NCBI GenBank assembly: GCA_036382515.1
Contig: DASVHQ010000289.1
Coordinates: 8,176-72,175 of the forward strand
Source of the DNA: Polyangiales bacterium
Lineage (GTDB): Bacteria; Myxococcota_A; Polyangia; Polyangiales; JAFGIB01
DNA: 64,000 bases
Direction: 5' to 3'
Every line of letters starts with the position of its first letter. Position 1 is the stretch's first letter. The notes under the pieces are model-generated. The model searched no databases. It saw nothing but the letters and a program-made list of their open reading frames with translations, and was not told where the DNA came from. Below, piece after piece: positions 6,655 to 56,748 of the stretch. Both the position numbers and the translations under genes were made by a program.

Positions 6655-8409
<1,755 letters not shown>

Positions 8410-8636: not shown

Positions 8637-9326
8637 TCACGCGCCCTTGCCGCGTGCAATTTCGGCCAGACGGGTCACCACGAGGTCGATGTCCATCGCG
8701 GTGGTGTCCACGAGGATGGCGTCATCGGCGGGGCGTAGCGGCGCGACGGCTCGACCTTGGTCCTGTGCATCACGCGCCCGGATTTCTTCCAGGGTTTTCG
8801 CGAAGTCGGCCTGGACCCCGCGCCCCGCCAGCTCACGCACGCGCCGATCAGCACGCGTTTGATCGGCGGCCGTGAGGAACACCTTGGCCTCGGCGTCGGG
8901 GAAGACGACCGTACCGATGTCGCGACCTTCGAGCACGACGCCGCCGTCCTGGCCGAGCCGACGCTGCAGCTCGAGCAGCGCGGCGCGCACCTCGGCGTGC
9001 TTGGACACGTCGCTGGCGCCCATCGATATTTCTGGCGAGCGGATCTCTGCCGAGCGGTCTTTGCCGTCGATGAGCAAACTGGGTGCGCCGGTTTCGCTCG
9101 CCGCGAAGCGCAGATCGAGCCGGGCCGTGAGCGCGCCCAGCGCCGGGCCGTCGGTCCAGGCGGTGCCGCGCTCGCGGGCTGCGAGCGCGACGCCACGGTA
9201 CAGCGCACCCGTGTCGACCAGCACAAAGCCCAGGCGCTGCGCCAGCTTCAGCGCCACGGTGCTCTTGCCGGCACCGGCTGGTCCGTCGATGGCGATGACT
9301 GGGCGGGTGCGCGTGCGGGTCGTCAC
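8637..9326 (-). CDS. cmk: cytidylate kinase
   Basis: VIAIDGPAGAGKSTVALKLAQRLGFVLVDTGALYR and EGRDIGTVVFPDAE. The start overlaps the upstream stop (ATGA). Confidence 0.95.
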   Translation of the reverse strand: MTTRTRTRPVIAIDGPAGAGKSTVALKLAQRLGFVLVDTGALYRGVALAARERGTAWTDGPALGALTARLDLRFAASETGAPSLLIDGKDRSAEIRSPEISMGASDVSKHAEVRAALLELQRRLGQDGGVVLEGRDIGTVVFPDAEAKVFLTAADQTRADRRVRELAGRGVQADFAKTLEEIRARDAQDQGRAVAPLRPADDAILVDTTAMDIDLVVTRLAEIARGKGA

Positions 9327-10699
9327 TTGTCGGGTGTTCCTTGCAAGAAGATGTCGGCGCCGAGCGCCTGCAGCGCTTCGAGGAAACCAGGATGAGCTTG
9401 TAGCAGCGCAGCGACGCCCTGCTCAACCACGCTCTCCCCCTCACCTGCCAGGCCCGCCACCACGGCGGCCATGACGAGCTGCGGGTCGTCGCTGGCCAGC
9501 ACGGCGCCGGTCGTGGGGTGGCGCAACTTGGTCACGCACAGCGCACCCGCCTTTTGCGTGGCGTCGATGCCCGTCGCGCGCAAGACGCCAAGCAACGCGC
9601 TGGCGTGTGGATCGTGGTCGGCCAGCAGCGGGTCCACGTCGTAGAGCTGTGCACCGCGCTGGGCGAAGCTGCCCAGCACGGCCAGCGCGGGCACTTCATC
9701 GCGCCCGCGCAGCAGCACTTCGCCGTCGAGCACGCCGCCGCGCAACGGGCGATGCCGCACGATCAGGTCGGCTATCGGCTCGCGGCCGGCGTCGCCGCGC
9801 GGCAGCACCTGCACGTCGGCGCCCCACAGGCGCAGCGCGTCGAAGTAGCCCGTGCGTGCGGGGTTGATGCCGACACCGCCGAGCGCGATGCGGCTGCCAG
9901 GCACGACCAGACATGCGGCCGACAGGTATGCGGCGCAGGTCGTGCAGCCCGGCAGCGCAAGCGCAGGCTGCGCCGGGATGTGGTGGTCCCAGTCGCGTGG
10001 CTCGAAGCACACGACGCTGCCGACGCGGCGCAGCGGCAAGCCGAGCATCACCATGGCGCGCTCGAGGTGATCCGGCGAGACCGTGGGCTCGCTCAGCAGT
10101 GTCGAGCCGGCGGCGAAGAGCGCGCTCACTAGCACGGCGCCTTTGGCGGCGGCGTCGGCTGCGGGCAGCTCGCAGTCGAGCGCGCTGAGTTGCTCACCGT
10201 CGACCAGTGGCGCGATGGCGAGCGGTGGTGTCGCTGGCGCGCCAGCGTGGCTGCTACGCCCGGCGATCTGCGCCCCGCGAGCGCGCAGTGGGCCAACGAT
10301 GCGCTCGACCGAGCGTAGAGCGAGGCTCTCGTGCACCAGCAGGCGTGTGCCGAAGCGCTGTGCGCCGATCAGTCCGGCCAGCAGCGCGAGCGCCGTGTAC
10401 GAACGCCCTGCGTCGAGCGCAGCGCTGGGCATGCGCAACCCATCCGTGCCGACACCGGTGATGCGCAGCGCTTCGGCGTCGGTTTCGATCGGCACGCCGA
10501 GCGCGCGCAGCGCGGTCAGCAAGCTGCCGAGGTGCGAGTCGAGTGGCGCGTCCGGCCAGAGCAAGGCACCGGGGCCATCGGCCAGCGCAGCCAGCACCAA
10601 CGCACGTTGCGCGACTTCGGCATCGAGTGGAACGCGAACGCTGCCGGACAGTGCGCGGCCAGGGCGAACGCGTAGGCTCGCGCTAGTGCGTTCGGTCAC
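9323..10699 (-). CDS. EPSP-synthase (AroA/EPT) family protein with degenerate active-site motifs; probably not a functional 3-phosphoshikimate 1-carboxyvinyltransferase
   Basis: ORF 9323..10906. The real start is GTG 10699, in a GTGA overlap with the upstream stop. Collinear by eye with class II EPSPS (LSGSVRVP..QRALVLAALADG, SL.LR..ERIVGPLRARG, NPARTGYFDALRLWGADVQV, HPGFLEAL). The catalytic motifs are substituted (see finding). Confidence 0.85.
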   Translation of the reverse strand: MTERTSASLRVRPGRALSGSVRVPLDAEVAQRALVLAALADGPGALLWPDAPLDSHLGSLLTALRALGVPIETDAEALRITGVGTDGLRMPSAALDAGRSYTALALLAGLIGAQRFGTRLLVHESLALRSVERIVGPLRARGAQIAGRSSHAGAPATPPLAIAPLVDGEQLSALDCELPAADAAAKGAVLVSALFAAGSTLLSEPTVSPDHLERAMVMLGLPLRRVGSVVCFEPRDWDHHIPAQPALALPGCTTCAAYLSAACLVVPGSRIALGGVGINPARTGYFDALRLWGADVQVLPRGDAGREPIADLIVRHRPLRGGVLDGEVLLRGRDEVPALAVLGSFAQRGAQLYDVDPLLADHDPHASALLGVLRATGIDATQKAGALCVTKLRHPTTGAVLASDDPQLVMAAVVAGLAGEGESVVEQGVAALLQAHPGFLEALQALGADIFLQGTPDK

Positions 10700-11778
10700 G
10701 GTGCCGGCCCGGCCTGCTTCGCGGGAGCCTTGCACTGCGGCGGATCCATGCCTTGCAACATGCCGGCGACACGCTTCTCGATGCTCTCGAGGTCGTCCTG
10801 CCCGATCGGGAAATCCAGCTGGGCCACCTCGGCTTGCGCGCGGACCTTCGCAGCGTCGAGCACGTCGGGGAAGCCGGCGAGGTGCGCGAACACGCCGACC
10901 TGCCACAGCCAGTCGTTGACTAGCTTCACCACCGAGTCAGCCTGTTCGGCCGAGCCGAGCTGCATCGCGACCGCCAGGCGCAACCCTGCCTTCGCGTCGA
11001 GCGCGAGCGCAAGCGGCGCGTGGCTGACGTTGTGCCCGAGTGATGGGGCGCCCACGGCGCCGAGCTCGGCTTCGACCACTTCGGCGGTCGGGCCGGACGG
11101 CTGCACCTGGGCACATACGGTCTTGTGCTGGCAGTCGATGCGTTCGGCCAGCGCGCGGGTTGCGCTACCGTCCAGCCAGCGCGGGTGAGCCTCGAAGCTG
11201 ATCAAGTCGAGCGAAGCATCGAGCCAACGGCCGCTTCCCAGGATCAGCAGATGCTCATCGAGCTGCGCCGCGGACAGCAGACCCGCGTCCGTGACAGAGA
11301 AGCGTCCGTGCATGCGGTGGCTGCGTGGCTTGGCGGTCGCGCCGCGGTCCTGATCGGCGAGCAGATCGAGTGCGCGCTCCACGTCGTTCGCGCCGTACTT
11401 GCCCTGCAAGAGCACGAGAAGATCGACGGGCTGGTTCGCTGTGCTGCGGCCCGCGAAGACGATGCGCGCGCTTTGCCCGGTGAGCCAGGTGAGGTCGTCG
11501 CTGCGCAGGCACGAGTGCTCTTGCGCCCAGCCACGCCAGGTGGGGAAGCTCTTGGACGCGGCAAGCTCGACGACGTCGACCGTTGCCACAAGCGAGGCGT
11601 CAGCTGGAACGAGCGCCAGCGCATCGGCCGGCACGGGCGCCTCGCGTGGCGCGGGTGCAGCGTCGCGGATGGCTGCGCTCGGTGCAGCCGGCCCGGGCGC
11701 GACGCCGCGGGTTCCCGCGCAGGCGCACAGGACCGACAGAAGCAGACAGGACGTAGTCTTCGCGTGCATGGGCGGCAT
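10696..11778 (-). CDS. hypothetical lipoprotein
   Basis: N-terminus MPPMHAKTTSCLLLSVLCACAG has a signal peptide plus a lipobox-like Cys. No recognisable enzymatic motif and no GxGxxG. Its stop overlaps the AroA-like start. Confidence 0.7.
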   Translation of the reverse strand: MPPMHAKTTSCLLLSVLCACAGTRGVAPGPAAPSAAIRDAAPAPREAPVPADALALVPADASLVATVDVVELAASKSFPTWRGWAQEHSCLRSDDLTWLTGQSARIVFAGRSTANQPVDLLVLLQGKYGANDVERALDLLADQDRGATAKPRSHRMHGRFSVTDAGLLSAAQLDEHLLILGSGRWLDASLDLISFEAHPRWLDGSATRALAERIDCQHKTVCAQVQPSGPTAEVVEAELGAVGAPSLGHNVSHAPLALALDAKAGLRLAVAMQLGSAEQADSVVKLVNDWLWQVGVFAHLAGFPDVLDAAKVRAQAEVAQLDFPIGQDDLESIEKRVAGMLQGMDPPQCKAPAKQAGPAP

Positions 11779-11819: not shown

Positions 11820-12914
11820 TCAGGTCTTGGCCAGCGCGTGCGGCAGGGCCGCGAGTAGCCGGTCGTTTTCGGCGGGCAAGCCGATGCTGATGCGCAGGTG
11901 GCGGTCGAGGGGCGCGCCGAACGGACGCACGATGACGCCCTGCCGCAGCAGCTTGTCGTAGACGGCGAAGGAGGGTTGCCCCAGGCCCACGCAGACGAAG
12001 TTTGCCTGACTGGGCGCGACCGATAGCCCCATGCCCTGAAGCGCAGCGCTGACACGGCCGCGCTCGCTGCGGTTGAGCTCTACGTAGCGCGCGACGTACG
12101 CGGCGTCGTCGAGGGAGGCGAGCGCCGCGGCTTGCGCCAGCGAGCCCACGTTGAACGGCGCGCGCACGCGGTCGAGGTAGCTCACGATTTCCTGGCTCGC
12201 CACGGCATAGCCCACGCGCAGCGCCGCCAGGCCGTGCGCCTTGGAGAACGTGCGCAGCACGACCAGACGTTCGTGCAGGTGGCGCATGCGCAGTGCCGAG
12301 GCGAAATCGGGCGCGTCCGCGAACTCGAAGTAGGCCTCGTCCACGACCGGCACGACGCTCCTCGGCAACGCGCGCAAGAAGTCCGCAAGCTCGGCTTTCG
12401 CGATGTGCGTGCTGGTTGGGTTGTTGGGATTGTCGAGGAACACCAGCTTGGTGTTGGGCCGCAGCGCGGCGTGCATCGCCGGTAGGTCCCAGTACAAGGC
12501 GTCGCGCAGCGGGACCTCTGTCATCGGCACGTTCGCGATGCGCAGCGACATCCCGTAGCAGACGAAGCTCGGTGCGCCGATCACGGCGTGATCGCTGGGG
12601 TCCGCCAGGGTGCGCACCAGCAGGTCGATCAGCTCGTTGGATCCGCAGCCAAACGCCAGCTCGCCCGGGCTCACGCCATGCTGCGCGGCCAGGCGCATGC
12701 GCAGCGCATGAGCGTGTGCGTCGGGATAGCGATGGAGCTCGGCGCTCGCTCGCGCGACCGCCTGCAGCACTTTCGGTGAAGGGCCGAGGGGGTTTTCGTT
12801 GCTCGCCAGCTTCACGGCGCCGTGGATGCCGAGCTCGCGCTCCAGCTCCTCGACGGGCTTGCCCGGGACGTACGGCTTGACGGCGGCGATGTGCGGCGCG
12901 ACCAGCGGTTTCAA
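11820..12914 (-). CDS. hisC: histidinol-phosphate / aromatic aminotransferase (class II PLP)
   Basis: KLASNENPLGPSP, DEAYFEF, and PLP-lysine motif TFSKAHGLAALRVGY. TTG start one nt after the pheA stop. Confidence 0.9.
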   Translation of the reverse strand: MKPLVAPHIAAVKPYVPGKPVEELERELGIHGAVKLASNENPLGPSPKVLQAVARASAELHRYPDAHAHALRMRLAAQHGVSPGELAFGCGSNELIDLLVRTLADPSDHAVIGAPSFVCYGMSLRIANVPMTEVPLRDALYWDLPAMHAALRPNTKLVFLDNPNNPTSTHIAKAELADFLRALPRSVVPVVDEAYFEFADAPDFASALRMRHLHERLVVLRTFSKAHGLAALRVGYAVASQEIVSYLDRVRAPFNVGSLAQAAALASLDDAAYVARYVELNRSERGRVSAALQGMGLSVAPSQANFVCVGLGQPSFAVYDKLLRQGVIVRPFGAPLDRHLRISIGLPAENDRLLAALPHALAKT

Positions 12915-16705: not shown

Positions 16706-19693
16706 TCACTGGTAGGTCATTCCGATCACCGAAGTGAACGGATCGAGCGGGATCGGCGCGAGCCCACGAATCGCGGGGTCGACCATGTACAGCTGCTGGT
16801 CGATGTCGTTGAAGCGCAGGAAGTTGGGCAGCACTCCGTGGTAGGAGCTGTAGCCGTAAGAGTTCGCATCGAGCACGACCTGCGGAACCGACGGCGGCAG
16901 GCCGATGGTCAAGGTGGTGCCGAGGTCGGGGCGAACGCGCTGGTCGATCTGAAACGCGATCACCGCATTCTCGAAGCGGGTCCGGTCATACGCGCGCGCG
17001 TTGCGCAGTGGGCTCTGTGCGCGGTCCTCCACACAGCGGCCCGAGCTGTCGGTGACGACGCGGTGCGAGAAGCTGCCGGTGCGCCGATCGATGACGGTAT
17101 ACGAGTTACGAGTCCGCACTGCGTAGGTCATCAACATGTCGCGGAAGCACTGGCGCACGAAGCTGTAGCTGGTGGAGCTCACGCCGCTGACCTTTGCGAC
17201 CATATCGCTGCCGATGACGAGGCGGTCGGCGAACGAGCGGGTGATCGGGAAGGCGATCTCGACGTCACCCGCGACGCGAGCGTTGTCGAGCGAAACGCAC
17301 TCCTCGGCGAGTGTATGGCCGGCAGTTCCGACGCGCTTTGCGCCCTCGGGCCAGTCGGTCGTCACGAGCTTGCTCGTGATCACGAGCTGATCTCCGTCGT
17401 GGTGCTCGGCCTTGAGGTCGTCGCTGCCGAGCACGCCGGCCTTGCAGAAGTTCGCCTCGCCCGCGAACTCAAGCTGACCCGTCTTGGAATCGGCGCTCCC
17501 CGCGTCCACGAAGCGCCCATGGCCGCCCTGAGTACCCGGCAGGATGCCTTCGAAGGTCGCATCCCAAAGGCCGACGGCGATCCAAGGGTCGGCGGGGGCG
17601 CACACGCGCGAGTCGCGCTTGAGATCGTGACAGAGTTGGCCGAGCGTGATCGACGGTGTCACAGCGCTGTTGTCGCCGCTGGCGGCGGCATCCAATCCCG
17701 CATCGAGCACCGCTGATTTGCCCGCGTCCGCGGTCTTCGCCGTCGCCGCGTCAGCGGTGGCCGTGGAGGCCGCGCCGGCCTGGATGCCACCGTCTACCAG
17801 GTTCGCGATCGTCAGCTGGTCCGGAAATGCCGGGAACTTGTTCGCCCCGCAAGTGATACACGCGAGTTGCTCGATCTCGGGGCTGTCGACGGTGCCGTCC
17901 GCGTTCACCAGGAAATGCCCGGTGCCGATGGTGAAGACCGGTGGGTAGTTGCCAGTCGTCGGTGCCAGGATCGGCGCCGGCTGCGTGAGGTCGATGGCCG
18001 CGAGCAGGCGCGGTCGGTGCCGCACCACGGGGTACGGGCAGGTGTGGCATTCGGCCAGCGCCAGATCGTGCACGTCCACGATGCGCACCGTGCCGTCGCT
18101 GATGCCGACGGCGACGAAGACACCGCGCAGCCGCGAGCTGGCCTGCGCCGTATTCGTGCTGTCGGTGCAGTAAAGGCGCGGATCACTGGCCGCCATGTTG
18201 CTGAGGTCGGCAGGCGCGCACGCGAGCTTCTTCGTCTTTGTGTTCTCCGTGAGCACCGAATCATCGAGCGAGATCAGCTCGAGCCCCGGGTCGGTGATGC
18301 CATAGAGCTGACGCAGCCGCGCATAGGGCGCCACGGAGGTCTGATCGAAGCCGTGCAACGGGTTGTTAGTGTCGTAGATGCCGCGCACGACCTCGATCGA
18401 GGTTGCCACCGGCTGCCCGGTGGTGAGCCTGATACCGGTCGCGCCCGGTGGGCCGAACGCGATGCGGTCGGGGCGCGAGCTAGGTTCGGAGCTCACCGAC
18501 AGCACGCGATTGCCCTGGGTGACCAAGACCGACCCGTCGGTCGCGTCGATGGCGTAGACGTACTGGGTCTCCCCGGTGAAGTGCGAGCGACCGCAGTCTC
18601 CGCCGACGAGCTTGGTCGGTACCGGCGGGGTGACGGCGAGCGCGCTCGTCGGGACGCCCGTGACGATGGGTGCGAGCACTGCGGCGCCGAGATTGCCGGC
18701 CTTGATGGCGTCGAGATCGAACGAGTGGATGATGGGCAGCGTTGCGTCGGCCACCAGCAAGCGTCGCACGCAGGGCGTGCCGGCTCGGCAGAAGGCATCG
18801 ACAGTCAGGGCCATGGGCCGAGGGGTTTTCGTCGCGGCGTCGGCCGGGATCGAGGTCGCGACTTTCTTCGGCGCAGGTAGCAAGAGCTGGGAGTCACACG
18901 CCTTCTGGTACGGCTCGCTCTCGGTGCCTCCGGCCGTGCTCGGCGTGGCTTTCGCAAGCGACTGGGTCAGCGGAATCAGCTGCGAAGCGGGCGTGTCGAG
19001 CGTGCCTTCCACGCAGTTGGCGCGCGCGCCGCCGCCCGCTGGCGACGTGCAGCGCTGAATCGGCAAGCGCAGCAGCGCTCCGGCGTCGGCGAAGGCCACG
19101 AAGAGTGCGTCCTCGTCGGGCGACATCTCCATCGCGCTTGGGCTCTGCGCGCCGAGTGCGGCCATGCCCGGCAGCACGAAGCGCACAGTCTGCAGCACCG
19201 GGTCTTCTCCGACATCGAGATGTCTGAACGCCGCCGTCTTGAGCACCGTGAGATCACGCGAACCTGCGTTCGCCACGTAAGTGACTTCCGGCCGATGGCG
19301 CGCAACGGCGATGGCCACGGGCAGCTCGCCCACGGGCACGAAGGTGTAGCCTGGGATGTCCGGTCGGCTGTCGATCACGCTCTTGTTACGCAGATCCACG
19401 GCAGCGACCTCACCGCGGCTCGTCTGGGCGAGCAGCGCATGCATGGCCGTGCTGGTGTCCGGGCCACAGATCGTGGCTGCGGGCCTGCCCACCGTCGTCG
19501 CGCCCGCGGCGACCGTCGGATAGCAGCACTCGATGGGCACCGGCAGCGGGTTGTTGCCGTCCTGCGTCTGGATACACACGAACGCCACGGCACCCGGACG
19601 ATCGAAGGTGGGCGGCGACGGAGGCGGCACCTGGTTTCCGCACCCCACGAGCCAAACCGCGAAGCATCCCAGCGTCCACAGCCAGCGCGTCAT
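16706..19693 (-). CDS. large hypothetical lipoprotein (995 aa), beta-propeller-like N-terminal region
   Basis: MTRWLWTLGCFAVWLVGCGNQ is a lipoprotein signal. Contains YVANAGSRDLTVLK-type strands. No enzymatic motif recognised. Confidence 0.75.
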   Translation of the reverse strand: MTRWLWTLGCFAVWLVGCGNQVPPPSPPTFDRPGAVAFVCIQTQDGNNPLPVPIECCYPTVAAGATTVGRPAATICGPDTSTAMHALLAQTSRGEVAAVDLRNKSVIDSRPDIPGYTFVPVGELPVAIAVARHRPEVTYVANAGSRDLTVLKTAAFRHLDVGEDPVLQTVRFVLPGMAALGAQSPSAMEMSPDEDALFVAFADAGALLRLPIQRCTSPAGGGARANCVEGTLDTPASQLIPLTQSLAKATPSTAGGTESEPYQKACDSQLLLPAPKKVATSIPADAATKTPRPMALTVDAFCRAGTPCVRRLLVADATLPIIHSFDLDAIKAGNLGAAVLAPIVTGVPTSALAVTPPVPTKLVGGDCGRSHFTGETQYVYAIDATDGSVLVTQGNRVLSVSSEPSSRPDRIAFGPPGATGIRLTTGQPVATSIEVVRGIYDTNNPLHGFDQTSVAPYARLRQLYGITDPGLELISLDDSVLTENTKTKKLACAPADLSNMAASDPRLYCTDSTNTAQASSRLRGVFVAVGISDGTVRIVDVHDLALAECHTCPYPVVRHRPRLLAAIDLTQPAPILAPTTGNYPPVFTIGTGHFLVNADGTVDSPEIEQLACITCGANKFPAFPDQLTIANLVDGGIQAGAASTATADAATAKTADAGKSAVLDAGLDAAASGDNSAVTPSITLGQLCHDLKRDSRVCAPADPWIAVGLWDATFEGILPGTQGGHGRFVDAGSADSKTGQLEFAGEANFCKAGVLGSDDLKAEHHDGDQLVITSKLVTTDWPEGAKRVGTAGHTLAEECVSLDNARVAGDVEIAFPITRSFADRLVIGSDMVAKVSGVSSTSYSFVRQCFRDMLMTYAVRTRNSYTVIDRRTGSFSHRVVTDSSGRCVEDRAQSPLRNARAYDRTRFENAVIAFQIDQRVRPDLGTTLTIGLPPSVPQVVLDANSYGYSSYHGVLPNFLRFNDIDQQLYMVDPAIRGLAPIPLDPFTSVIGMTYQ

Positions 19694-21111
19694 TTGAACT
19701 CCTGAACCGGTCGTGGCGAGCCGAGCGTTGCGATCACCTCGGCCGAGGTCGGGCCCGCATGGGCTCCCTGCACCACCGGCGCGAGATCGAGGATGCGAAC
19801 CACCGATGAACGGAAGTCCGCGACGTACAGGCGCTTGCGCACGTCGTCGATGCCAAGCTCGAACGGCCCGCTGAGGTTGTGGACGATGGAGAGCACCTCG
19901 CCATCCAGCAAGTCGATCACGTAGATCTCGCGCGCGTCGAAGCAGCTGACGACCACGACCGAGCGTCCGGCCACGTGGCCCAGAGTCAGGCGCGAAGGAC
20001 CTGCCCCGACCAGCACCGTTCTGCGTGCCGGTGCGCTGACCGCGTTGCCGACGTCCGACGTCTGAATCTGTGGCACGTCGACCCAGAGCAGCGCTGCGGG
20101 GTTTCGGCTGATGACGAGAGCCTGCCCGGGGAGCTCGTCCGTGAATGCCAAGCTGCGCGTGTCGAGGGTGGCACTCACGCCGTCGATGTCGAGGATGCCG
20201 TCATCGTATAGGGCCGACTGCTGCGTCGCTCCGAGGTTCAGCGCGACGCCGACGCGGCCAAGCACCTTCGGGCCACTGCCAGCTGCGGTCAGCCGATCGT
20301 GCACGCTGAAGTAGGCGCGTCGCGTGCGGTGATCGAACGCGATGGCGGTGGGTTCTTGCACGAGGCCAGTGACCACGTCGACGAGCGTCGGGCCGAGAGT
20401 CTGTCCGCTCTCGGCCTGCTCCAGGAAGAGGCTGACCTGCCCGCCGCGATGTGCGACCAGCACGAAGTCGCCCTTCAGCTTGCCGGCATTCGGGTCGGCA
20501 GTTTGATCGGGCTCGAGCAAGTCGCGGGCATTGCCGGTCGCGAGGGCGATGCCTTCTGGCGGATAGCTCAGGTTCCGCGGGTTCTGCAGCGGGTCGCCGC
20601 GTTGGTGGTCGGGGTCGCAGTGGCGGCCGGTGTTGCCGCAGCGCAGCAAGCCATCCGCATTCTTCTTCACATCCACGGTCTCATCGGTCTCGATGAACGT
20701 GAGGCTCGCGTCGGCGCGATTCGTCATGTAGAGGTGCTTGTGATCGCCCGACGGCGCGACGCCGGTCGCGAACGAGCTCACGAGCACTTCGTCCACGAGG
20801 AAGCTCGTGGGGTCGATCTTGCAGTCGATGCCGGGGGCGCTGGCGCACTGACGAGCAATCTGCTTGTCCAGAGCCGCGAGGTCGTAAGCCTGCACGCTGC
20901 CGCCGTTGTAGCGCAGGTCGAAGTTCGAGTTGATCAGGTACAGGAAGCGAGGCGCCGCGCTGCTGCTCTGCCCCGAGAGCGCAAGCGCCGTGGGGAAGTA
21001 CAGGAGCCCACGCGGCGGGTCGTCGCCCGGGTTATTGAGGTTGCAGGCGCTGCTCGTCAGCACGAGGCAAGCCAGCAAGAATATGGAACAAAGTGATGCG
21101 GCACGACGCAT
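19690..21111 (-). CDS. hypothetical lipoprotein (473 aa), beta-propeller-like
   Basis: MRRAASLCSIFLLACLVLTSSACNL is a lipoprotein signal. Contains LYVADFRSSVVRILDL-type repeats. 4-nt overlap with the downstream lipoprotein gene. Confidence 0.75.
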   Translation of the reverse strand: MRRAASLCSIFLLACLVLTSSACNLNNPGDDPPRGLLYFPTALALSGQSSSAAPRFLYLINSNFDLRYNGGSVQAYDLAALDKQIARQCASAPGIDCKIDPTSFLVDEVLVSSFATGVAPSGDHKHLYMTNRADASLTFIETDETVDVKKNADGLLRCGNTGRHCDPDHQRGDPLQNPRNLSYPPEGIALATGNARDLLEPDQTADPNAGKLKGDFVLVAHRGGQVSLFLEQAESGQTLGPTLVDVVTGLVQEPTAIAFDHRTRRAYFSVHDRLTAAGSGPKVLGRVGVALNLGATQQSALYDDGILDIDGVSATLDTRSLAFTDELPGQALVISRNPAALLWVDVPQIQTSDVGNAVSAPARRTVLVGAGPSRLTLGHVAGRSVVVVSCFDAREIYVIDLLDGEVLSIVHNLSGPFELGIDDVRKRLYVADFRSSVVRILDLAPVVQGAHAGPTSAEVIATLGSPRPVQEFK

Positions 21112-33340: not shown

Positions 33341-34276
33341 TCAGGGCGCAGCGCTGGGGTTGCGCGCCCGGCGCGCGAGCACGGGCCATGCGGCTGCAAC
33401 CGCGCCGAGGATCAGCACGCCGATCAGCTGCGAGGTGCTCAGCCCCAGGAGCGCACCGCGATCATCGGCGCGCAGGTACTCCACAAAGAAGCGCAGCACC
33501 GCGTAAAGCGCGAGGAAAAGCAGCAGCACCTGACCGTCGAAGCGTTTCCTGGGCAACGCGTAGGCGATGAGCCAGGCCGCGAGCGCGAGGCAACCGGCCG
33601 CTTCGTAGAGCTGTGTCGGGTGCACGGGCAGCGAGACGAGGTTCTTGCTCGTGATCAATCCAGCTTGGAACTGCGCGTAGCTGGCGGGCGAGCCTGCGGG
33701 GAAGGCGATCCCGAAATGACTGTGCGTCGGGAGCCCGAAGCAGCAGCCGCCGAGGAAACAACCGAGGCGCCCGAAGAAGATGCCCAGCGGCAGCACGGCG
33801 CCGACCATGTCGACGCCTTTGCCCACCGGGAAGCGCTCGCGCTTGAGGAACGCGATGCCGGCGACGGTGGCGACGAGCAGCCCGCCGTAGTAGGCGAGCC
33901 CGCCGTTCCAGAACTCCGCCCAGGCAAAGCAGTCGCGCTGCACGGCGTGGCACAGCTGGGTTGCGAGGTCCCAGCGACCGCTCAGCTCCTTGCATTCGGC
34001 GGCGCTGTCGACGGCGCGCCAGACCACGGCGTCGGGGTTGGTGCACAGGTGCACGTAGTCCCAGAAGTAGCCGTCGGCGATCACGTGCAAGAGCCGCCCG
34101 CCGAGCACGCCGGTGATCAGCGACAAGAGGCTGAGGTCGATGATGATCTCGTGATCGAGGCCGCTGCGCTTGGCCAGGCGTGCGGCGACGAAGGTCGCGG
34201 CCGCGAAGCCGAACATCAGCATCACGAAGTAAGCCGGCAGCGGCTCGCCGAACAGCTCGCCGAAGCTAGGCTTCAT
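33341..34276 (-). CDS. lgt: prolipoprotein diacylglyceryl transferase
   Basis: [36 protein letters not shown]. Confidence 0.92.
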
Positions 34277-35057: not shown

Positions 35058-35579
35058 TCAGGCGTGTGGCGGGTTGGTCCGGGGCGCGGCCTGCCCTGCT
35101 CCGCCGCTTGCGGCTCGCAGGTACCACAGCAGCGAGACGAGGCCAGCGGCGATCAGCACATCGGCGAAGTTGAAGGTCGCCCAGTGGAAGATGTCGCCGA
35201 GGTGCAGATGCACGAAGTCCGTGACTTCACCCGTGCGCACGCGGTCGATGAGGTTGCCGGCCGCGCCCGCGCACAGGAGCGTGAGCGCCCAGCGCAGCGT
35301 GCGCTCCGCCTCGGAGCTTCGGCGCAACAGCCGCAGCATGAGCGCGATGATTACGAGGCTGCCGACCACGAACGCGTTGCGACGTAGCGCTTCGGGCAGG
35401 TGGCTGCCCAGACCGAAGAACGCGCCGCGATTGTGCAAGAGGCGCAGCTCGCAGCAGCACTGCACGAGCTGGATGATTCCGCGCCGCGGCAGCTCGGCTC
35501 GCGCCCAGGCCTTGCCGAGCTGATCGAGGATCACGGCCGCGCCGGCAAACAGCGCGAGCCGTGCCAGCGACTTGTTCAC
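35058..35579 (-). CDS. lspA: lipoprotein signal peptidase II (copy 1, coupled to ileS)
   Basis: HNRGAFFG, GNLIDR, VTDF, FNFAD. GTG 35579 is in a GTGA overlap with the ileS stop. Confidence 0.88.
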   Translation of the reverse strand: MNKSLARLALFAGAAVILDQLGKAWARAELPRRGIIQLVQCCCELRLLHNRGAFFGLGSHLPEALRRNAFVVGSLVIIALMLRLLRRSSEAERTLRWALTLLCAGAAGNLIDRVRTGEVTDFVHLHLGDIFHWATFNFADVLIAAGLVSLLWYLRAASGGAGQAAPRTNPPHA

Positions 35580-38482
35580 GGCGGCGAGCCGAGCGCCGTG
35601 ATCACCTGGGCACAGCGCTCGCACAGCTCCGGGTGGGCGGCGTGCGTGCCGACGTCGTCGCGGTGCCGCCAACAGCGGCTGCATTGGGGCGAGCTGGTCT
35701 TGCGCAGCTCCACCGCCACGCTCGGGCCCGAGCGCAACTCGACCGAGGCGATGGCGAACACCTCGGCGAGATCAGTCGCGAGCGTGGCGAGCTGTGCGCG
35801 CGTGGCCTCCGGCAGCGTGAGCACGGCGGCGACCTCGCGGCGATGGCCGATCTCCTTGGCTTTCACCTTGGGCTCGAGCGCGGCGTTGAGCGCGTCGCGC
35901 ACCGAGAAGAGTTGCTCGCCGGCGTCGAGCAGCTGGCGGTCGGCTTCCGTGAGCGGGCTGGCTTGCAGCTTGGCATCCAGGAACACCGAGCCATCCTGCT
36001 CGCCTGGCAGACAGCGGTAGGCTTCGTCGGCGGTGAACGACACGATCGGCGCCAGCGCCGCAATCGTGCCGCGCGCGATGGCATCGAGCGTGGCCTGACA
36101 CGAGCGCCGTCGCGCTGCGTTCTCGCCATCGCAGTACAACCGGTCCTTCACCACGTCGAGGTAGAACTGCGACCACGGCCCGACGCACAGCTCGACGGTG
36201 CGGTGGTAGACGGTGCGGAAGTCGTAGCGCTCGTAGGCGGTCACGACCTCGTACAGGTACTGGCGCATGCGGGCTTGCGCCCAGGCGTCGAGTGGCTCGA
36301 TCGCCGGCGTTGCGGCCTGGCGATCGAAGTCGTGGAGGTTGCCGAGCAGGAAGCGCAGCGTGTTGCGGATCTTGAAGTACGCGTCGGACACCTGCTTGAG
36401 GTGCTCGTTCGAGAAGCGCACGTCGCCGCGGAAGTCCTCGTACGCAACCCACAGCCGCAGGAGCTCCGCGCCCTGTTGCTTGATGAGCTTCTCGGGCTCG
36501 ATGTACTCGACCTTTTCGCCGGCTTCCTGGCGCCTGCGCAGCTCGCTCTTGGAGTACGGCCGGCCCTGGTCGTCGCAGACGAAACCATGCGTGAGCACAC
36601 GCTTGTACGGTGCACGCCCGAGCACGGCGGCGCCCACGAGCAGCGACGAGTGAAACCAGCCGCGGTGTTGATCGGAGCCTTCGAGGTAGAGATCCACGGG
36701 CACGCCGAAGCCCGCCTCGGTACTGCGCATGGTCGACCAGAACGAGGCGCCCGACTCGAACCACACGTCGAGGATGCTGGTGTCTTTGGAGAACTCGCTG
36801 CCGCCGCACTGCGCGCAGCGGTAGTTGGCGGGCACGAGCGCGCTCGCCTCCTTCGTGAACCAGGCGTCGGCGCCTTCTGCGCCGATGACGCGGCTGACGT
36901 GGGCCACCAGTATTTCGTCGAGCGAGACATGCGCGCACTGCTTGCAGTGCAGCGCCGGGATGGGCACACCCCAGGCGCGCTGTCGCGAGATGCACCAGTC
37001 GGGACGATCGGCGAGCATGCCGTGGATGCGGTCGCGACCCCACTCCGGGATGAAGCCGCTCGGTGTCTTGCCCTCTTGATCTGGCAGATCACGGCCGCCT
37101 GCGATGGCTTCGATCTCGTCGAGCGCGACCTGGCGCAGTGTCTTCAGGTCGTCGCGGCCCTGCATCGGCGTGTCGAGCGCGATGAACCACTGCGTGGTGG
37201 CACGGAACACGATGGGGTTCTTGCAGCGCCAGCATGCGGGGTAGCTGTGCTGGAGCACATCGCCTTCGCGGTTGGCGAGCACGCCCTGCTCTGCCAGGAA
37301 ATGCACGATGCGTGGGTTCGCCTCGAGCACGTGCAGGCCGCGCCACTCTTCGCGCACTTCGTTCGTGAAGCGTGCGGCTTCGTCGACGGGCGCGAAGGTG
37401 TCCAGGCCGTGCGTTTGGCCGAGCGAGTAGTCGTCGGCGCCGTGGCCGGGCGCGGTGTGAACCAGGCCGGTGCCGGTGTCGAGTGTGACGTAGTCTGCTG
37501 GCAGGAGCGGCGATGCCCGGTCCTCGAACGGATGCTGCGCGATGAGGCCCACGAGCTCGCTGCCCGGGACCATACGCCCGATGATCGACAGCTCGCTGTG
37601 CGTGGCCTTGGCGACCGTCTCGATCAACGCGCGCGCCACGATCCACAGCTCGCCGCCCACCTGCACGGCCGCGTATTCGTGGTTGGGATGCACAGCGATC
37701 GCGAGGTTCGCGGGCAGCGTCCAGGGCGTGGTCGTCCAGATCAGCGCGTACGCCTCGAGCTTGCTCTCGGCACCGCTCAAGCCGAAGCGCTGCGCGAGCG
37801 TGGCGTGCGCTTCCCCGACCACCGGGAACTTCACATAGATGCTCGGGGACGCGTGGTCGATGTACTCGACCTCGGCCTCGGCGAGCGCGGTCTTGCAGCG
37901 GCCGCACCAGTGCACCGGCTTCTTGCCGCGGTACACGAGGCCATGGCGCACGAACGCGCCCAGCGCCTCCACGATGCCCTGCTCGAAGCTCGGCGTGAGC
38001 GTGAGGTACGGCTCGGCCCAGGTGCCGAACACGCCCAGGCGCTTGAACTCCTCGCGCTGTACGTCGACCCACTTCTCGGCTTCTTTGCGGCAGGCCGAAC
38101 GCACGATGTTCTGACTCAGCTCGGCCTTCTTGCCCGCCAGCGCACGCTCCACGCCAAGCTCGATCGGCAAGCCGTGGCAATCCCAGCCGGGCACGAACTT
38201 CGTGTAGCGCCCGGCGAGCGTCTGGTACTTGACGACGATGTCTTTGAGGATCTTGTTGAGGATGTGCCCGTAGTGAATGTGCCCGTTCGCGTACGGCGGG
38301 CCATCGTGAAACACGTAGCGCGGGCCGCCAGCGCGGGCTTCCAGCGCACGCTCGTAGATGCGCTCACGTTGCCAGCGTGCCAGCGTCTCCGGTTCGCGCT
38401 GCGCCAGGTTGGCGCGCATCGGGAAGTCCGTCTGCGGCAACCTGATCGTGTCTTTGTATTGCGCGCGCTCGCGTTCGGCCAC
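35576..38482 (-). CDS. ileS: isoleucyl-tRNA synthetase
   Basis: YKDTIRLPQTDFPMRANL, HIGH region PPYANGHIHYGH, C-terminal zinc motif CSRCW...CERC. GTG 38482 preceded by GAGG. Confidence 0.96.
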   Translation of the reverse strand: MAERERAQYKDTIRLPQTDFPMRANLAQREPETLARWQRERIYERALEARAGGPRYVFHDGPPYANGHIHYGHILNKILKDIVVKYQTLAGRYTKFVPGWDCHGLPIELGVERALAGKKAELSQNIVRSACRKEAEKWVDVQREEFKRLGVFGTWAEPYLTLTPSFEQGIVEALGAFVRHGLVYRGKKPVHWCGRCKTALAEAEVEYIDHASPSIYVKFPVVGEAHATLAQRFGLSGAESKLEAYALIWTTTPWTLPANLAIAVHPNHEYAAVQVGGELWIVARALIETVAKATHSELSIIGRMVPGSELVGLIAQHPFEDRASPLLPADYVTLDTGTGLVHTAPGHGADDYSLGQTHGLDTFAPVDEAARFTNEVREEWRGLHVLEANPRIVHFLAEQGVLANREGDVLQHSYPACWRCKNPIVFRATTQWFIALDTPMQGRDDLKTLRQVALDEIEAIAGGRDLPDQEGKTPSGFIPEWGRDRIHGMLADRPDWCISRQRAWGVPIPALHCKQCAHVSLDEILVAHVSRVIGAEGADAWFTKEASALVPANYRCAQCGGSEFSKDTSILDVWFESGASFWSTMRSTEAGFGVPVDLYLEGSDQHRGWFHSSLLVGAAVLGRAPYKRVLTHGFVCDDQGRPYSKSELRRRQEAGEKVEYIEPEKLIKQQGAELLRLWVAYEDFRGDVRFSNEHLKQVSDAYFKIRNTLRFLLGNLHDFDRQAATPAIEPLDAWAQARMRQYLYEVVTAYERYDFRTVYHRTVELCVGPWSQFYLDVVKDRLYCDGENAARRRSCQATLDAIARGTIAALAPIVSFTADEAYRCLPGEQDGSVFLDAKLQASPLTEADRQLLDAGEQLFSVRDALNAALEPKVKAKEIGHRREVAAVLTLPEATRAQLATLATDLAEVFAIASVELRSGPSVAVELRKTSSPQCSRCWRHRDDVGTHAAHPELCERCAQVITALGSPP

Positions 38483-38528
38483 GTTTCTCACCTCGCGTAT
38501 TCGGCGATTTCCGCTTGGAATTCGCCGG

Positions 38529-38556
38529 TTTCTACCATGCGACCCCGCGATGTCAA
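38529..38556 (-). promoter_or_regulatory. candidate sigma70-type promoter for ileS
   Basis: Minus strand reads TTGACA (38556..38551), a 16-nt spacer, then TAGAAA (38534..38529). It lies about 45 nt upstream of the ileS start. Confidence 0.3.
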
Positions 38557-39753
38557 AGCGGTTCGGCTGCGCCGTAGCCGCCACCGCCCGGGGTCTCGAT
38601 GCGGATGCGCTCGCCCGCCCGCACGTTCACGCTGGCGCATGCGCCGAGCTCGCGGCCCTGATGCAGGTTCTTGCCGGGAGCACCGGCGCTGCCGCCCGCG
38701 AGGCCGAACGGGGAGCGCGTGCGTCGGCTCGAGAGGATCGAGACCTCGAGCGGGGCGAGCGCTTCGAGCTCGCGCACCACTCCGTCGCCGCCGTGGAAGC
38801 GGCCCGCGCCCCCCGAGCCACGGCGCAGCCCAAAGCTCCACAGTCGCACGGGATAGCGGCTCTCGAGCACCTCGGCGTCAGTGATGCGCGTGTTCGTCAT
38901 GTGCGTGTGAACACCCGAGGCGCCGGGTAGCGCTGTTCGAGCAGCACCGAGCGGATCGTGGCTTCGTCCAGCACGCCATCGCGCACGATGCGCAGCGCAC
39001 GAAACACGGCGCCCTCTTCTTTCAGACAGGTCAAAAACGGCGGCATCGAGCCGGGCGTGACACTGCCGATGTCCGCGTGATGTCCGCGGCTGGCACTCCA
39101 GAACGTGGGCGTGCTCCCGCGCGTCGTGGCCACGCGCCACGCTGACCTTGCGGATGGCCTCCGCCATGTGCTCGACGGCGATCTCGAAAAAGCCTGCCGC
39201 GACGCCGTACGGACCGCGTGCGTCGCCCTACTCGGTCAAGCGCTGCACGATGGCGCTGACCGCCTGCCATGCGCGTTCACGCTGCAGCGCGAACGGAAGA
39301 CGTTCGTCGGGCAAGCGTCCGAGCACGACGTTCACATCCGTCAGCGTGAGTTCATGGGCCTCTGCGCGGCCGTAGCACAGCGGGCCCGGCACGGCGCCTG
39401 CGCTCTCGCACGATCCGCAGCGCAAACAGATCCGGGCGCGTCTGGTCGCCAATCTCGAGCAGATCGGCGAAGCCTCGCGTGGTGACGAGCGCGGTGCGCG
39501 CGCCACGACCCTCGAGCAGCGCGTTGGTCGCGAGCGTGGTCCCCATGCGCAGCTCGCAGGGCGGGATCGGCACGCCCTCTGCCAGCCCGAGCAGCTCGCG
39601 CACACCGTCGATCGGTGCGCGGTCTGACGACAGCAGCTTCGCCACGCGCACGCTGCCATCTCGTGGGTCGACGCCGATGCAGTCGGTGAACGTACCGCCG
39701 CGATCGATGAACACCCGGTACTGCCCGCCGCTGCTCGGCCCGTGGCTCATCAT
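38553..39753 (-). pseudogene. decayed 5-oxoprolinase / hydantoinase A+B gene relic
   Basis: Hydantoinase/oxoprolinase pieces lie in different frames: [14 protein letters not shown]...[43 protein letters not shown] (39352-39753); [30 protein letters not shown]; [20 protein letters not shown]; [20 protein letters not shown]; [18 protein letters not shown]...[17 protein letters not shown]...ETPGGGGYG (38553-38900). About 1.2 kb remain where an intact gene needs several-fold more. Confidence 0.8.
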
Positions 39754-39771
39754 GGTCGCCGCGTCACCGCG

Positions 39772-40296
39772 TCACTCGCCCGAGGCGCGTGCGCGCCGAC
39801 GTTCGCGCTGGACGATGGGCGCCATCTCTTTTTGTGCGCTCGCGGGCTCGAGGAGGATCACTTCGTCCTGATTGCTGTGCAGCGCGCCTGCGGCGACGAA
39901 GCTCTCCATGGCCGCCACCGGAGCGCTGCGTTCGGTGCTGCGACCGGGCAGGACGATCGCCGTGGTGCGCACCTTGGCGCGCGAAACCACGTCGAACATG
40001 CGCACCGTCGCCGGCAAGAGCGAGTCCGGTCCGAACTCGGCTTGAGGGCCGAGGCCGAAGAGAAAGAGCTTGTCGATGCTGAAGCCGGGTCGCAGCGGCA
40101 CGAGCACGGTCTCGCCAAGCTCCCCGCCCACGAAGCCGCGCACGATCATCTTCGAGACGAAGCCCGACAGCCGCCAGTCGATGAGACCGAGCGCGCCGCA
40201 CAGCGGCCGCTCGTCGCTGAAGAACGGCGCGAGGATCGCCTCGCACTTGAGCGCATCGAGGTGCTTCCACTCGGGCGAAAGGAACCGGACGTCCAT
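39772..40296 (-). CDS. conserved hypothetical protein (weak resemblance to the M17 aminopeptidase N-terminal, macro-like domain)
   Basis: ORF 39772..40296, 174 aa. Coding-like composition, but no catalytic motif recognised. Confidence 0.55.
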
Positions 40297-54849: not shown

Positions 54850-56748
54850 CTAGGCTTCGACCGGCTCTTCGTCCGAGCCCTCGGTTTCGTCCTCTGACGA
54901 TTCCTCGTCGATCTCGTCCGGCATGTCGTCGTGCTCGAAGGGCACGTCGATCTCGTCCTCGCCGCGCTCGTCGGCTTCGCCGACGGCGTCGTCGGCTTCG
55001 CCTGCCTCGCGCTGCGATTCGTCGAGCTCCTCGTCCCAGTCGGCATCGGTCGGCTGGGCTCGGGTTGTCGGCTCCGACTGCACGCGCTCGGACCCCTCGG
55101 ATTGGCGCTGTTCGCCAGCTTCGTTGCCCTGCGCGTCGCGCGCCGCTTCGCCGCGCTCTTCGCCACCGCGCCCGCGGTCATCGTCGGAACGCTCGGTAGA
55201 ACCCTGCGCTTCGCGATCGCGGCGCCGCGGCTCCGGTGCGCGCTCGCGCTGTTCGCGCTCACGCAGCTCGCGCTGCTCGCTGTTGTCACCGAGCGCCTCG
55301 AGCAGATCCAGGTCCAGCTCGTGGTGCGCGATCGCCTGTGTGCGTACGGCCACGCCGACACGCTCCATCGCGGTGGCGATGGCCATGCCGTCGAACAACG
55401 CGCATGGTGCCGCACCCGCCATCGCCGCTTCGTCGCGTGCGCCGCTCGTCATGCGGCCCGTGCTCAGAATCCAGGCACTGCTGGCTTGCCCGTAGTGATG
55501 CAACGCGCCGCGCACCTCGACCACCGTGTCGCGATCGATCTCACGCGCCGTGCGCACGACCACGATCGCCAGGCGGGTCTCTTCGCTGCCACGCTTGAGC
55601 GTGCCCGCGAAGTGGAACTCGGAGACGCTGCTGCCGGGACGGCGCACCGCACGCAGAGCCGTCACGCCCTCGGCGTTGAGCCACGTGGCAATCAGCTCGG
55701 CAAAACCTGCCGCGGGCAGGATGCCGAACTTTTGGATGAGCGTGCGGCGCAGCTCGACGCCGTAGCGCTCGGCGGCCGCGAGCAAGTCTTGCTCGACGCG
55801 CGCCAGGGGCCTTGGCAGGAGCCACTCGGTCAATGAGAGCCGACCGCCACGCACGCGGAAGCGAGAGTGTGTGCGGGTGAGCTCGGCGCGCGAGATGTCC
55901 GCGCGCACGGAGGCGGCGATGGTCGGGGCCAGCCCGGCGGGGTTGCCGCTCAATCGGCCACGGCGCACGAGCAACTCGGCCACGCGTACGAACGTATGCG
56001 GCCCGTGGTCGCCACGCGACAGCACGCTCCACACGGCGTCCGCCAGGTCCTTGCCCAGCAGGTCACCGTCGGCCGGCTGCCGGTTCCAGTCGAGCTGCGC
56101 GGTCTCTTCGACCCGACCGCGGTCGCGATCGCGGTCTCGATCACGGCCGTGGTCACGACCGTTGTCACGCATGCGATCTCGACCCTGGTCGCGCGGTAGA
56201 TCCCGCGGCCGCTCGCGGATCGGCTCGCGTGGAGCCTCGACCCGCACGGGCAGCTCGGGTGCGCCCTCGGGACGATCACCACCCTTGCCTCGGCGACGTC
56301 GGCGCCGCCTGCGACGCCCGTTCTTGTCCTCTTCGCTGCCTTCCTTCTCGAGGCCTGCGAGGATCGGATCGTCGTCGCCTTCTTCCTCGGGAAAGACGTC
56401 GCCGCCAGGCAGCTGGGCTACGACCGGCTCGGGCTTGGGGGCAGCCACTGCGCCCGGTTCTTCGATGGTGGCTTCGGCTTCGTTGGCTGCAGCTGCCGCA
56501 GCCGCCGCAGCGAAGTCTTCCAGCGCAGATTCGCGGATCGCGAACACGCCAGGTTTCACCTTCATGATCGGTGCCTGGCCGCGGTCCTTCTTGACCATCA
56601 TGGCGAGGCGCGAACTCATCGTCACTTCGGGCGTCTTGCCCACGTGCGAGAGCAGGTTTTTTTCGATCGCGAGCTCGGTGATCCTCTTGTAGTGCAGCGG
56701 TTCTCCGGCGCTACGCAGGACCTCCAGCGCCGCTTCCGTAAAAGTCAT
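54850..56748 (-). CDS. HARE-HTH domain protein with charged low-complexity linker, Mrr-like (restriction-endonuclease-fold) domain and acidic tail
   Basis: N-terminus MTFTEAALEVLRSAGEPLHYKRITELAIEKNLLSHVGKTPEVTMSSRL resembles the RNAP-delta/HARE-HTH type. Linker contains RRRRRRRRRGKGG...RDRDRDRDRGR. Central region is FAELIATWLNAEG...RLAIVVVRTAREI...VEVRGAL. The last ~120 aa are strongly acidic. Confidence 0.6.
   Translation of the reverse strand: MTFTEAALEVLRSAGEPLHYKRITELAIEKNLLSHVGKTPEVTMSSRLAMMVKKDRGQAPIMKVKPGVFAIRESALEDFAAAAAAAAANEAEATIEEPGAVAAPKPEPVVAQLPGGDVFPEEEGDDDPILAGLEKEGSEEDKNGRRRRRRRRRGKGGDRPEGAPELPVRVEAPREPIRERPRDLPRDQGRDRMRDNGRDHGRDRDRDRDRGRVEETAQLDWNRQPADGDLLGKDLADAVWSVLSRGDHGPHTFVRVAELLVRRGRLSGNPAGLAPTIAASVRADISRAELTRTHSRFRVRGGRLSLTEWLLPRPLARVEQDLLAAAERYGVELRRTLIQKFGILPAAGFAELIATWLNAEGVTALRAVRRPGSSVSEFHFAGTLKRGSEETRLAIVVVRTAREIDRDTVVEVRGALHHYGQASSAWILSTGRMTSGARDEAAMAGAAPCALFDGMAIATAMERVGVAVRTQAIAHHELDLDLLEALGDNSEQRELREREQRERAPEPRRRDREAQGSTERSDDDRGRGGEERGEAARDAQGNEAGEQRQSEGSERVQSEPTTRAQPTDADWDEELDESQREAGEADDAVGEADERGEDEIDVPFEHDDMPDEIDEESSEDETEGSDEEPVEA

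Follow-up and report, generated by a model that had tools for sequence, protein, structure and literature searches.

An EPSP-synthase-fold protein in the aroA slot of uncultured Polyangia is probably a maintained pseudoenzyme

What does a gene do that sits in the place of aroA and encodes a protein from which most of the substrate-binding residues of EPSPS (5-enolpyruvylshikimate-3-phosphate synthase) have gone? The question is raised by a 64,000-nucleotide stretch of DNA from a Polyangiales bacterium (assembly GCA_036382515.1, contig DASVHQ010000289.1), which was analysed over its whole length and is called the window here. An earlier note made from the sequence alone had described the aroA-like gene and its altered motifs, and had proposed a pseudoenzyme or a neofunctionalised protein. 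We found that the gene is probably an in-place descendant of the ancestral class II aroA of Polyangia, which has lost EPSPS catalysis and is maintained as a pseudoenzyme. Judged from the alignments and dN/dS, it fits an operational definition of a pseudoenzyme, namely homology to an enzyme together with loss of the catalytic residues and a sequence held by purifying selection. Loci are referred to by L numbers and database proteins by P numbers.

The 458-aa product is a class-II-type EPSPS homologue that aligned collinearly with class II EPSPS. Its start agreed with the N-termini of homologues in alignment A1 and its open reading frame (ORF) was intact, so the earlier statement that the gene is not a frameshifted pseudogene held. 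On the enolpyruvyl transferase (EPT) domain model PF00275 the protein scored 108.1 bits over residues 11-442, above the gathering threshold of 22.8, with canonical EPSPS domains at 390-430 bits. On the NCBIfam AroA equivalog model TIGR01356 it scored 134.3 bits against a cut-off of 287.25; the canonical sisters scored 355-360 bits and the other degenerate members 95-253, all under the cut-off. Among solved structures the closest by HMMER were the class II enzymes of B. halodurans (3rmt) and Coxiella (3roi/3slh), at E ~1e-51. The class II EPSPS of A. baumannii, S. pneumoniae and CP4 were also matched, the overall range being E 1e-51 to 1e-38, and class I E. coli EPSPS was matched at just ~1e-5. 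The expectation that automatic annotation would call such a gene aroA was borne out for JGI/IMG, where homologues with the same defect are labelled '3-phosphoshikimate 1-carboxyvinyltransferase', but not for NCBI, where the exact window protein is named 'hypothetical protein VF331_18405' of a Polyangiales metagenome-assembled genome (MAG). P0001 has the accession HEX7479782.1.

The changes in the substrate site are listed motif by motif in the table. They were read from HMMER alignments to 3rmt and 3roi/3slh and from the 120 best database hits aligned with MAFFT, and residue numbers such as K22 and R386 follow E. coli numbering. Of the 16 residues that bind shikimate 3-phosphate (S3P) and phosphoenolpyruvate (PEP) or take part in catalysis, 12 were replaced in the window protein (K22, S23, N94, G96, R100, S169, Q171, K340, E341, R344, H385, and R386), and R27, R124, S197, and D313 of the D313/E314 pair were kept. 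Since the listed motif positions are 100% conserved among 87 canonical homologues, the substitution pattern is far beyond chance. The motif replacements that had first been read by eye (K22, S23, N94, G96, R100, SSQ, RVKETDR, and NDHRMAM) all reappeared in both sets of alignments, as did the retained Arg124 and RDE aspartate. The possibility that the catalytic residues were present but offset could thereby be set aside, as proper alignment found them replaced and not shifted. The supposed loss of Lys411 was dropped as evidence; it says nothing, because in the MAFFT alignment that column is variable even in canonical class II relatives. Across the degenerate relatives described below, S169->D was invariant (28/28 clade members) and A105, the equivalent of R100, was 96% conserved, with the D313/E314 pair just 57% and R124 75% conserved. 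The alignments indicated that a protein of this sequence would be unable to work as an EPSPS, because every group of S3P- and PEP-binding residues is replaced and the positions drift freely among clade members.

The same relatives indicated where constraint was lost and where it was gained. Canonical homologues share 109 columns with a conservation of 90% or more, of which 68 were no longer conserved in the degenerate clade, and 42 columns with 95% or more in the sister clade dropped below 60%. Over the 19 ligand-contact columns, mean pairwise identity was 1.00 in the sister clade versus 0.39 in the degenerate clade. The latter value lay below the background identity of the degenerate proteins (0.52), and the 146 other sister-conserved columns retained 0.67. 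Only 5 sites were conserved but different (R100->A, S169->D, V->A185, G->R348, and V->L432). A further 14 sites gained constraint, and these clustered at residues 303-322 (REP...LRGG) and 224-225; conservation exceeded that of the sister clade in segment 301-330 alone (0.60 versus 0.46), which makes residues 303-322 a candidate new functional surface. There is probably no conserved replacement active site. Because the former ligand-contact columns vary between members, the pattern reads as lost catalysis with a retained fold and perhaps a new surface, and not as a new conserved active site.

The structure of the window protein was predicted by AlphaFold2 from an alignment of the 28 degenerate sequences only, with a pLDDT of 93.6 and a pTM of 0.93. 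The top Foldseek match was the liganded, closed form of Coxiella AroA (3slh; TM 0.88-0.93, E = 1.7e-43), and CP4 with S3P was also among the best matches. Open forms fitted less well (3roi, TM 0.72; 1eps, TM 0.49). The predicted model thus showed the two-domain inside-out alpha/beta EPT fold to be retained.

The defect was not peculiar to the window. In a key-residue table, ~35 of the 120 best database hits showed the same kind of damage, and in the remaining full-length hits the canonical residue set was complete apart from occasional conservative changes. A neighbour-joining tree placed 28 full-length degenerate proteins (alignment A1) in one clade beside canonical AroA of the Sandaracinaceae and Polyangiales types; the clade spans 42-56% identity, with intact ORFs in >30 independent assemblies. 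A scan of GTDB genomes found 19 loci, every one in a MAG of uncultured Polyangia or Myxococcota; 4 were clearly degenerate and a fifth degenerate one, in a long-read assembly, carried one frameshift. A metagenome scan returned 80 loci, 13 of them degenerate, and an exhaustive profile search of 1.84 billion 50%-identity representatives gave ~33 clearly degenerate representatives among the best 147. All degenerate members are known from MAGs or metagenomes, and every member that could be placed belonged to uncultured Polyangia. Conservation of the substitutions in orthologs, which the earlier note had raised as a check, came out as an active-site loss common to a large clade, though the replacing residues mostly vary. 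P0090 and the P0092/P0150 pair nested within a different canonical clade (Polyangiaceae/Minicystis type), and P0067, P0077, and L099 formed a separate branch. The first two of these lineages, and possibly P0067/P0077 as well, look independent of the main clade. Two to three losses of catalysis seem to have occurred, as the tree suggests; long-branch attraction would unite such sequences, not separate them.

Two members of the family were unusual. P0014 carries insertions of ~24 and ~45 residues in two loops (A1 columns ~169-192 and ~451-503), which in the window protein fall just behind residue 149 and near residues 391-397. The two loops are also the ones most variable between the window gene and L111, and the insertions suggest that the C-terminal former substrate lobe tolerates large changes. 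In L020:7815-9138, on the long-read MAG contig CAVZVA010000009 (1.56 Mb), a single frame change near 8264 is either a sequencing indel or a real frameshift.

Selection on the aroA-like gene was measured in close degenerate pairs. Against L111 (90.7% identity, dS 0.20) the window gene gave a dN/dS of 0.25, and in the same comparison pheA gave 0.07, hisC 0.08, and the ORF between hisC and the aroA-like gene 0.30. Other close pairs gave 0.19 (L028/L029) and 0.13 (L088/L097) for the aroA-like gene. With the adjacent cmk used as an internal clock, dN relative to cmk was 1.93 for the aroA-like gene in the degenerate clade (interquartile range 1.73-2.13; 78 pairs) versus 0.93 for aroA in canonical lineages (interquartile range 0.85-1.01; 118 pairs). 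The corresponding ratios in degenerate versus canonical loci were 0.84 versus 1.17 for pheA, 1.17 versus 1.21 for hisC, and 0.88 versus 0.95 for mutS. Among these four genes the acceleration was confined to the aroA-like gene, on which selection is relaxed ~2-fold and clearly still purifying. The near-identical strain L025 had no differences within the aroA-like gene and was uninformative on selection. Over the 5 kb compared, L025 was 99.7% identical to the window, and 14 of its 15 differences lay within 107 bases of hisC (12290-12396) and caused 4 amino-acid changes; this cluster looks like a short recombination or gene-conversion patch, not scattered mutation.

Degenerate and canonical loci had the same gene order, mutS-pheA-hisC-lipoprotein-like ORF-aroA(-like)-cmk-rpsA-AI2E permease-PP2C, and all 25 degenerate loci with readable flanks (25/25) occupied the ancestral aroA slot. 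Because slot and neighbours are common to both kinds of locus, the degenerate gene is the positional descendant of aroA. The earlier description of a conserved pheA-hisC-aroA-cmk-rpsA arrangement therefore stood as to the slot, with the amendment that the upstream coupled gene is the lipoprotein-like ORF and not hisC. Coupling on both sides was likewise found, though the cmk junction reads GTGA (9326-9323) and not ATGA. The cmk-side 4-nt overlap was present in 7/7 degenerate loci with gene calls there (L001-L005, L025, and L109) and in canonical L106, one of the two canonical loci checked. The upstream 4-nt overlap was also present in L001, L005, and L109, and was absent from L002 and L003, where the genes are non-overlapping. 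hisC has gone from the slot in L001, L087, L088, and L097, and both pheA and hisC have gone in L099 and L109. In L109, the sole locus of the latter kind with gene calls, the triplet of ORF, aroA-like gene, and cmk persists with its 4-nt overlaps.

The lipoprotein-like ORF had no Pfam or NCBIfam match. Its Ala19-Cys20 pair is invariant, as are further Cys residues. Its evolution is rapid, with identities of 25-41% from locus to locus and a dN/dS of 0.05-0.5, and a word-indexed protein search gave 2 hits only. The ORF also adjoins canonical aroA in L009, L016, and L106 (hhalign gave a probability of 98.7% to the L016 ORF); in Polyangia it is an ancestral neighbour on the upstream side of aroA. 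A degenerate tyrA and a partner specific to the degenerate clade were both considered for this ORF and rejected, as it is lipoprotein-like and also stands beside canonical aroA.

Table. Features of the aroA-like locus (positions in the window; all on the minus strand; residue ranges refer to the window protein, and residues named in the substrate-site changes follow E. coli numbering)
Feature	Position	Strand	Remarks
EPSP-synthase-fold coding sequence, putative pseudoenzyme	9323..10699	-	GTG start, 458 aa + stop, intact ORF
VPLDAEVAQR for VPGDKSISHR	10604..10633	-	residues 23-32; K22->A, S23->E, R27 kept
AGRSYTALA for xGNSGTxxR	10385..10411	-	residues 97-105; N94->R, G96->Y, R100->A
DAAAK for SAQVK	10142..10156	-	residues 182-186; S169->D, Q171 lost, Lys kept
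SPDHLER (canonical SRDHTER)	10058..10078	-	residues 208-214; S197 and D-H-x-E-R kept, R198 lost
Constraint-gaining segment DAGREPIADLIVRHRPLRGG	9734..9793	-	residues 303-322; D303, R306, R320, G322
RDEVP	9689..9703	-	residues 333-337; D313/E314 pair kept here
LLADHDP for LRVKETDR	9608..9628	-	residues 358-364; R338, K340, E341, D343, R344 lost
SDDPQLVM for xGDHRxAM	9470..9493	-	residues 403-410; H385->P, R386->Q
GTGA overlap, lipoprotein-like ORF stop/aroA-like GTG start	10696..10699	-	
GTGA overlap, aroA-like stop/cmk GTG start (aaGTGAcg)	9323..9326	-	
cmk (cytidylate kinase), translationally coupled, downstream	8637..9326	-	PF02224, 225 bits; adjacency conserved
360-aa lipoprotein-like ORF	10696..11778	-	invariant lipobox Cys20; between hisC and aroA-like gene

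The two readings that had been offered side by side for this gene did not fare equally. A maintained pseudoenzyme agrees with the clade-wide defect, the dN/dS of 0.13-0.25, and the high-confidence fold. A neofunctionalised enzyme, in which the EPT fold would bind a different, non-phosphorylated ligand or catalyse another reaction in a remodelled cleft, fits less well, because the ligand columns stand at 0.39 against 1.00 in the sister clade and conserved-but-different sites number only five. It is nevertheless the best of the alternatives, and we regard it as possible though improbable. The clade is fixed for S169->D and R100->A and retains S197, the Lys of SAQVK, and the DHxER core, an aromatic residue (W, F or Y) replaces G96 in 14/28 members, and both the positions that gained constraint and the low dN/dS would be expected of it. 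A new active site should, however, be conserved, and the ligand columns are below background; even the closest relatives disagree at most positions of the former cleft, and within the subclade of the window the D313 column reads D, E, T, A, T. Nor did new gene neighbours hint at a new pathway.

Under the pseudoenzyme reading, selection would preserve a role that depends on the fold and not on catalysis. Our guess is that the protein may act as a stoichiometric partner or scaffold within the co-translated unit of lipoprotein-like ORF, AroA(-like) protein, and Cmk, most plausibly with Cmk. Cmk is suggested because the cmk overlap is kept in 7/7 degenerate and 1/2 canonical loci, because natural AroA-Cmk fusions exist (P0177, P0201, and P0242; NF008816), and because the aroA-like gene stays beside cmk after pheA and hisC leave the slot. 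If such a second role predated the loss of catalysis, it would fit repeated, independent loss with the protein retained.

The conserved junction with cmk, and its persistence where pheA and hisC have left, could also mean that the ORF is kept just for translation into cmk and hence for cmk-rpsA supply, in which case any soluble, harmless polypeptide would suffice. The overlap in canonical L106 as well as in the degenerate loci agrees with this, yet we think such an expression spacer unlikely. Coupling needs the last codons only, and 430-465 aa with both domains are retained; 41 of the 109 canonical conserved positions survive, the dN/dS is 0.13-0.25, and AlphaFold2 was highly confident from the clade's own alignment.

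The remaining alternatives concern the shikimate pathway. pheA is among the most constrained genes of the locus, so chorismate is presumably still made and a working EPSPS should exist elsewhere; it is probably encoded elsewhere in the genome. In tblastn searches with canonical P0020 and P0098, the window and the fetched loci showed one copy each, and a Pfam scan of the 64-kb window found no aro gene among its other 40 ORFs. Among the 120 best hits, a canonical AroA annotated 'MAG TPA' was absent, which is weak evidence. The canonical NCBI hits P0022 and P0041 were considered as second copies and rejected, as they are in-slot genes of other genomes. The absence of per-assembly duplicates in the GTDB scan is uninformative, because the pattern used (G[PAV]LRARG) misses aroA of the [DE]PLRARG type. 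Canonical Polyangia-type aroA was found out of the slot in L036:2900-5347, L041, and L042, in the order M19 dipeptidase-VanY-like-pheA-aroA and without hisC or cmk. One metagenome series (Ga0105047) yielded both L042 and the degenerate L099, whose GC contents are similar (0.688 and 0.682, respectively); this is no more than suggestive of L042-type aroA being a displaced functional copy, with no physical link shown to L099.

A clade without any conventional EPSPS, which would make chorismate by an unrecognised non-homologous enzyme or route, or by this protein with a complementing partner, the in-slot protein being newly non-catalytic, seems to us quite unlikely. It is very improbable that the window protein itself is still an EPSP synthase by way of a radically altered active site or of a partner supplying the missing residues. 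It does occupy the aroA slot, beside a pheA that needs chorismate, with no other aroA in the available sequence; against this, every Lys and Arg that binds phosphate or carboxylate has been replaced, as has the proposed catalytic Glu, an Asp at S169 would repel the S3P phosphate, and the replacing residues are not conserved among members. A recently inactivated gene heading for loss, its ORF persisting merely in GC-rich DNA, could explain a rate relative to cmk ~2x that of canonical aroA, and is hardly credible for a clade of 42-56% identity with >30 intact, independently assembled ORFs, dN/dS far below 1 at low divergence, and a retained fold, the dN/dS and family data having already refuted a decaying pseudogene.

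Several points weigh against a maintained pseudoenzyme with a role at Cmk. A few positions of the former cleft do not vary or have become fixed anew (S169->D, R100->A, S197, and the SAQVK Lys) and one surface segment, residues 303-322, gained constraint, so that a new ligand or partner site is possible. Cmk as the partner is a guess drawn only from gene order, coupling, and fusions elsewhere, and a second aroA was not found in the 64-kb window, the fetched loci, or the hits annotated as 'MAG TPA'. Only neighbour-joining trees were built. The dN/dS values were obtained by NG86, which is unreliable at dS > ~0.8 (saturated), and such pairs were not relied on. Moreover, only loci still carrying an aroA homologue were sampled, and lineages that deleted the gene are invisible to this ascertainment.

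Elsewhere in the window, two large ORFs of 995 and 473 aa without Pfam match lie directly upstream of mutS (16706-21111, minus strand). In L002, L003, and L005 the corresponding position holds similar Pfam-less ORFs (~910-930 and ~440-480 aa), and this looks like a conserved pair. Tandem lspA genes (signal peptidase II, PF01252; 34304-35032 and 35058-35684, minus strand) stand beside lgt (33341-34276), downstream of ileS (35576-38584). Next to nusB and rib genes, two short adjoining ORFs (39352-40296, minus strand) correspond to the N-terminal region only of a hydantoinase/oxoprolinase (133 aa) and the N-terminal domain only of an M17 leucyl aminopeptidase (174 aa), and may be gene remnants or truncated domains. 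A 632-aa ORF with HARE-HTH and Mrr-type restriction endonuclease domains (54850-56748, minus strand) adjoins the methylmalonyl-CoA mutase/MeaB cluster.

The finding bears on annotation and on enzyme evolution. Where IMG-style EPSPS labels are taken over, many MAGs of soil myxobacteria would be credited, in metabolic reconstructions and in predictions of glyphosate sensitivity, with a step that this gene would be unable to carry out. The NCBI cut-off rightly withholds the EPSPS name, yet leaves 'hypothetical protein'. The EPSPS classification of Leino et al. (bioRxiv 10.1101/2020.05.27.118265) uses active-site markers referenced to Coxiella and has only an 'unclassified' bin, where the window protein would probably be placed. 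A literature search covering EPSPS pseudoenzymes, non-catalytic aroA paralogues, and AroA-Cmk fusions found such a protein nowhere described. The locus offers a natural experiment in which an enzyme of central metabolism was probably turned into a pseudoenzyme in place, apparently more than once in one bacterial class, with the canonical sister genes in the same slot as a built-in control.

Compared with known systems, the window protein is closest in fold to class II EPSPS (Coxiella 3slh/3roi, Agrobacterium CP4 2gg6, and B. halodurans 3rmt). The same two-domain fold is shared at 28-31% identity, collinearly over the full length, and the structural skeleton of Gly, Pro, and Leu, the DHxER motif, and the SAQVK Lys are retained. 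Unlike these enzymes it is without K22, S23, N94, G96, R100, S169, Q171, and R198 and also without R338, K340, E341, R344, H385, and R386. Canonical in-slot AroA of Polyangia (P0020 and P0022; L009, L016, and L106) has the same slot, flanks, and cmk coupling, is 41-46% identical, and shares the motifs QxFGTR and GPLRARGA. It keeps all ligand residues, however, and evolves at the cmk rate, whereas the degenerate clade evolves ~2x faster. The AroA-Cmk fusions P0177, P0201, and P0242 (NF008816) have AroA and Cmk in the same order and in the same tight linkage; here the two are instead separate ORFs that overlap by 4 nt, the fusions carry a canonical AroA part (PF00275 390-430 bits versus 108), and the window protein scored 26.8 bits versus 943 on the bifunctional AroA/Cmk model NF008816. 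MurA has the same EPT superfamily fold (Foldseek 5ujs and 2yvw, TM ~0.76) but 15-18% identity, and the window protein fell far short of the murA models, with 15-19 bits against cut-offs of 297-552 overall (17.9 versus 392.7 for TIGR01072 and 18.9 versus 297 for NF006873). Among metabolic pseudoenzymes, HisZ is an inactive HisRS paralogue that regulates HisG. The concept is the same, in that catalytic residues are lost and a non-catalytic role would be served, but HisZ is a paralogue with a known partner, whereas in the window it seems to be the orthologue itself that was converted in place.

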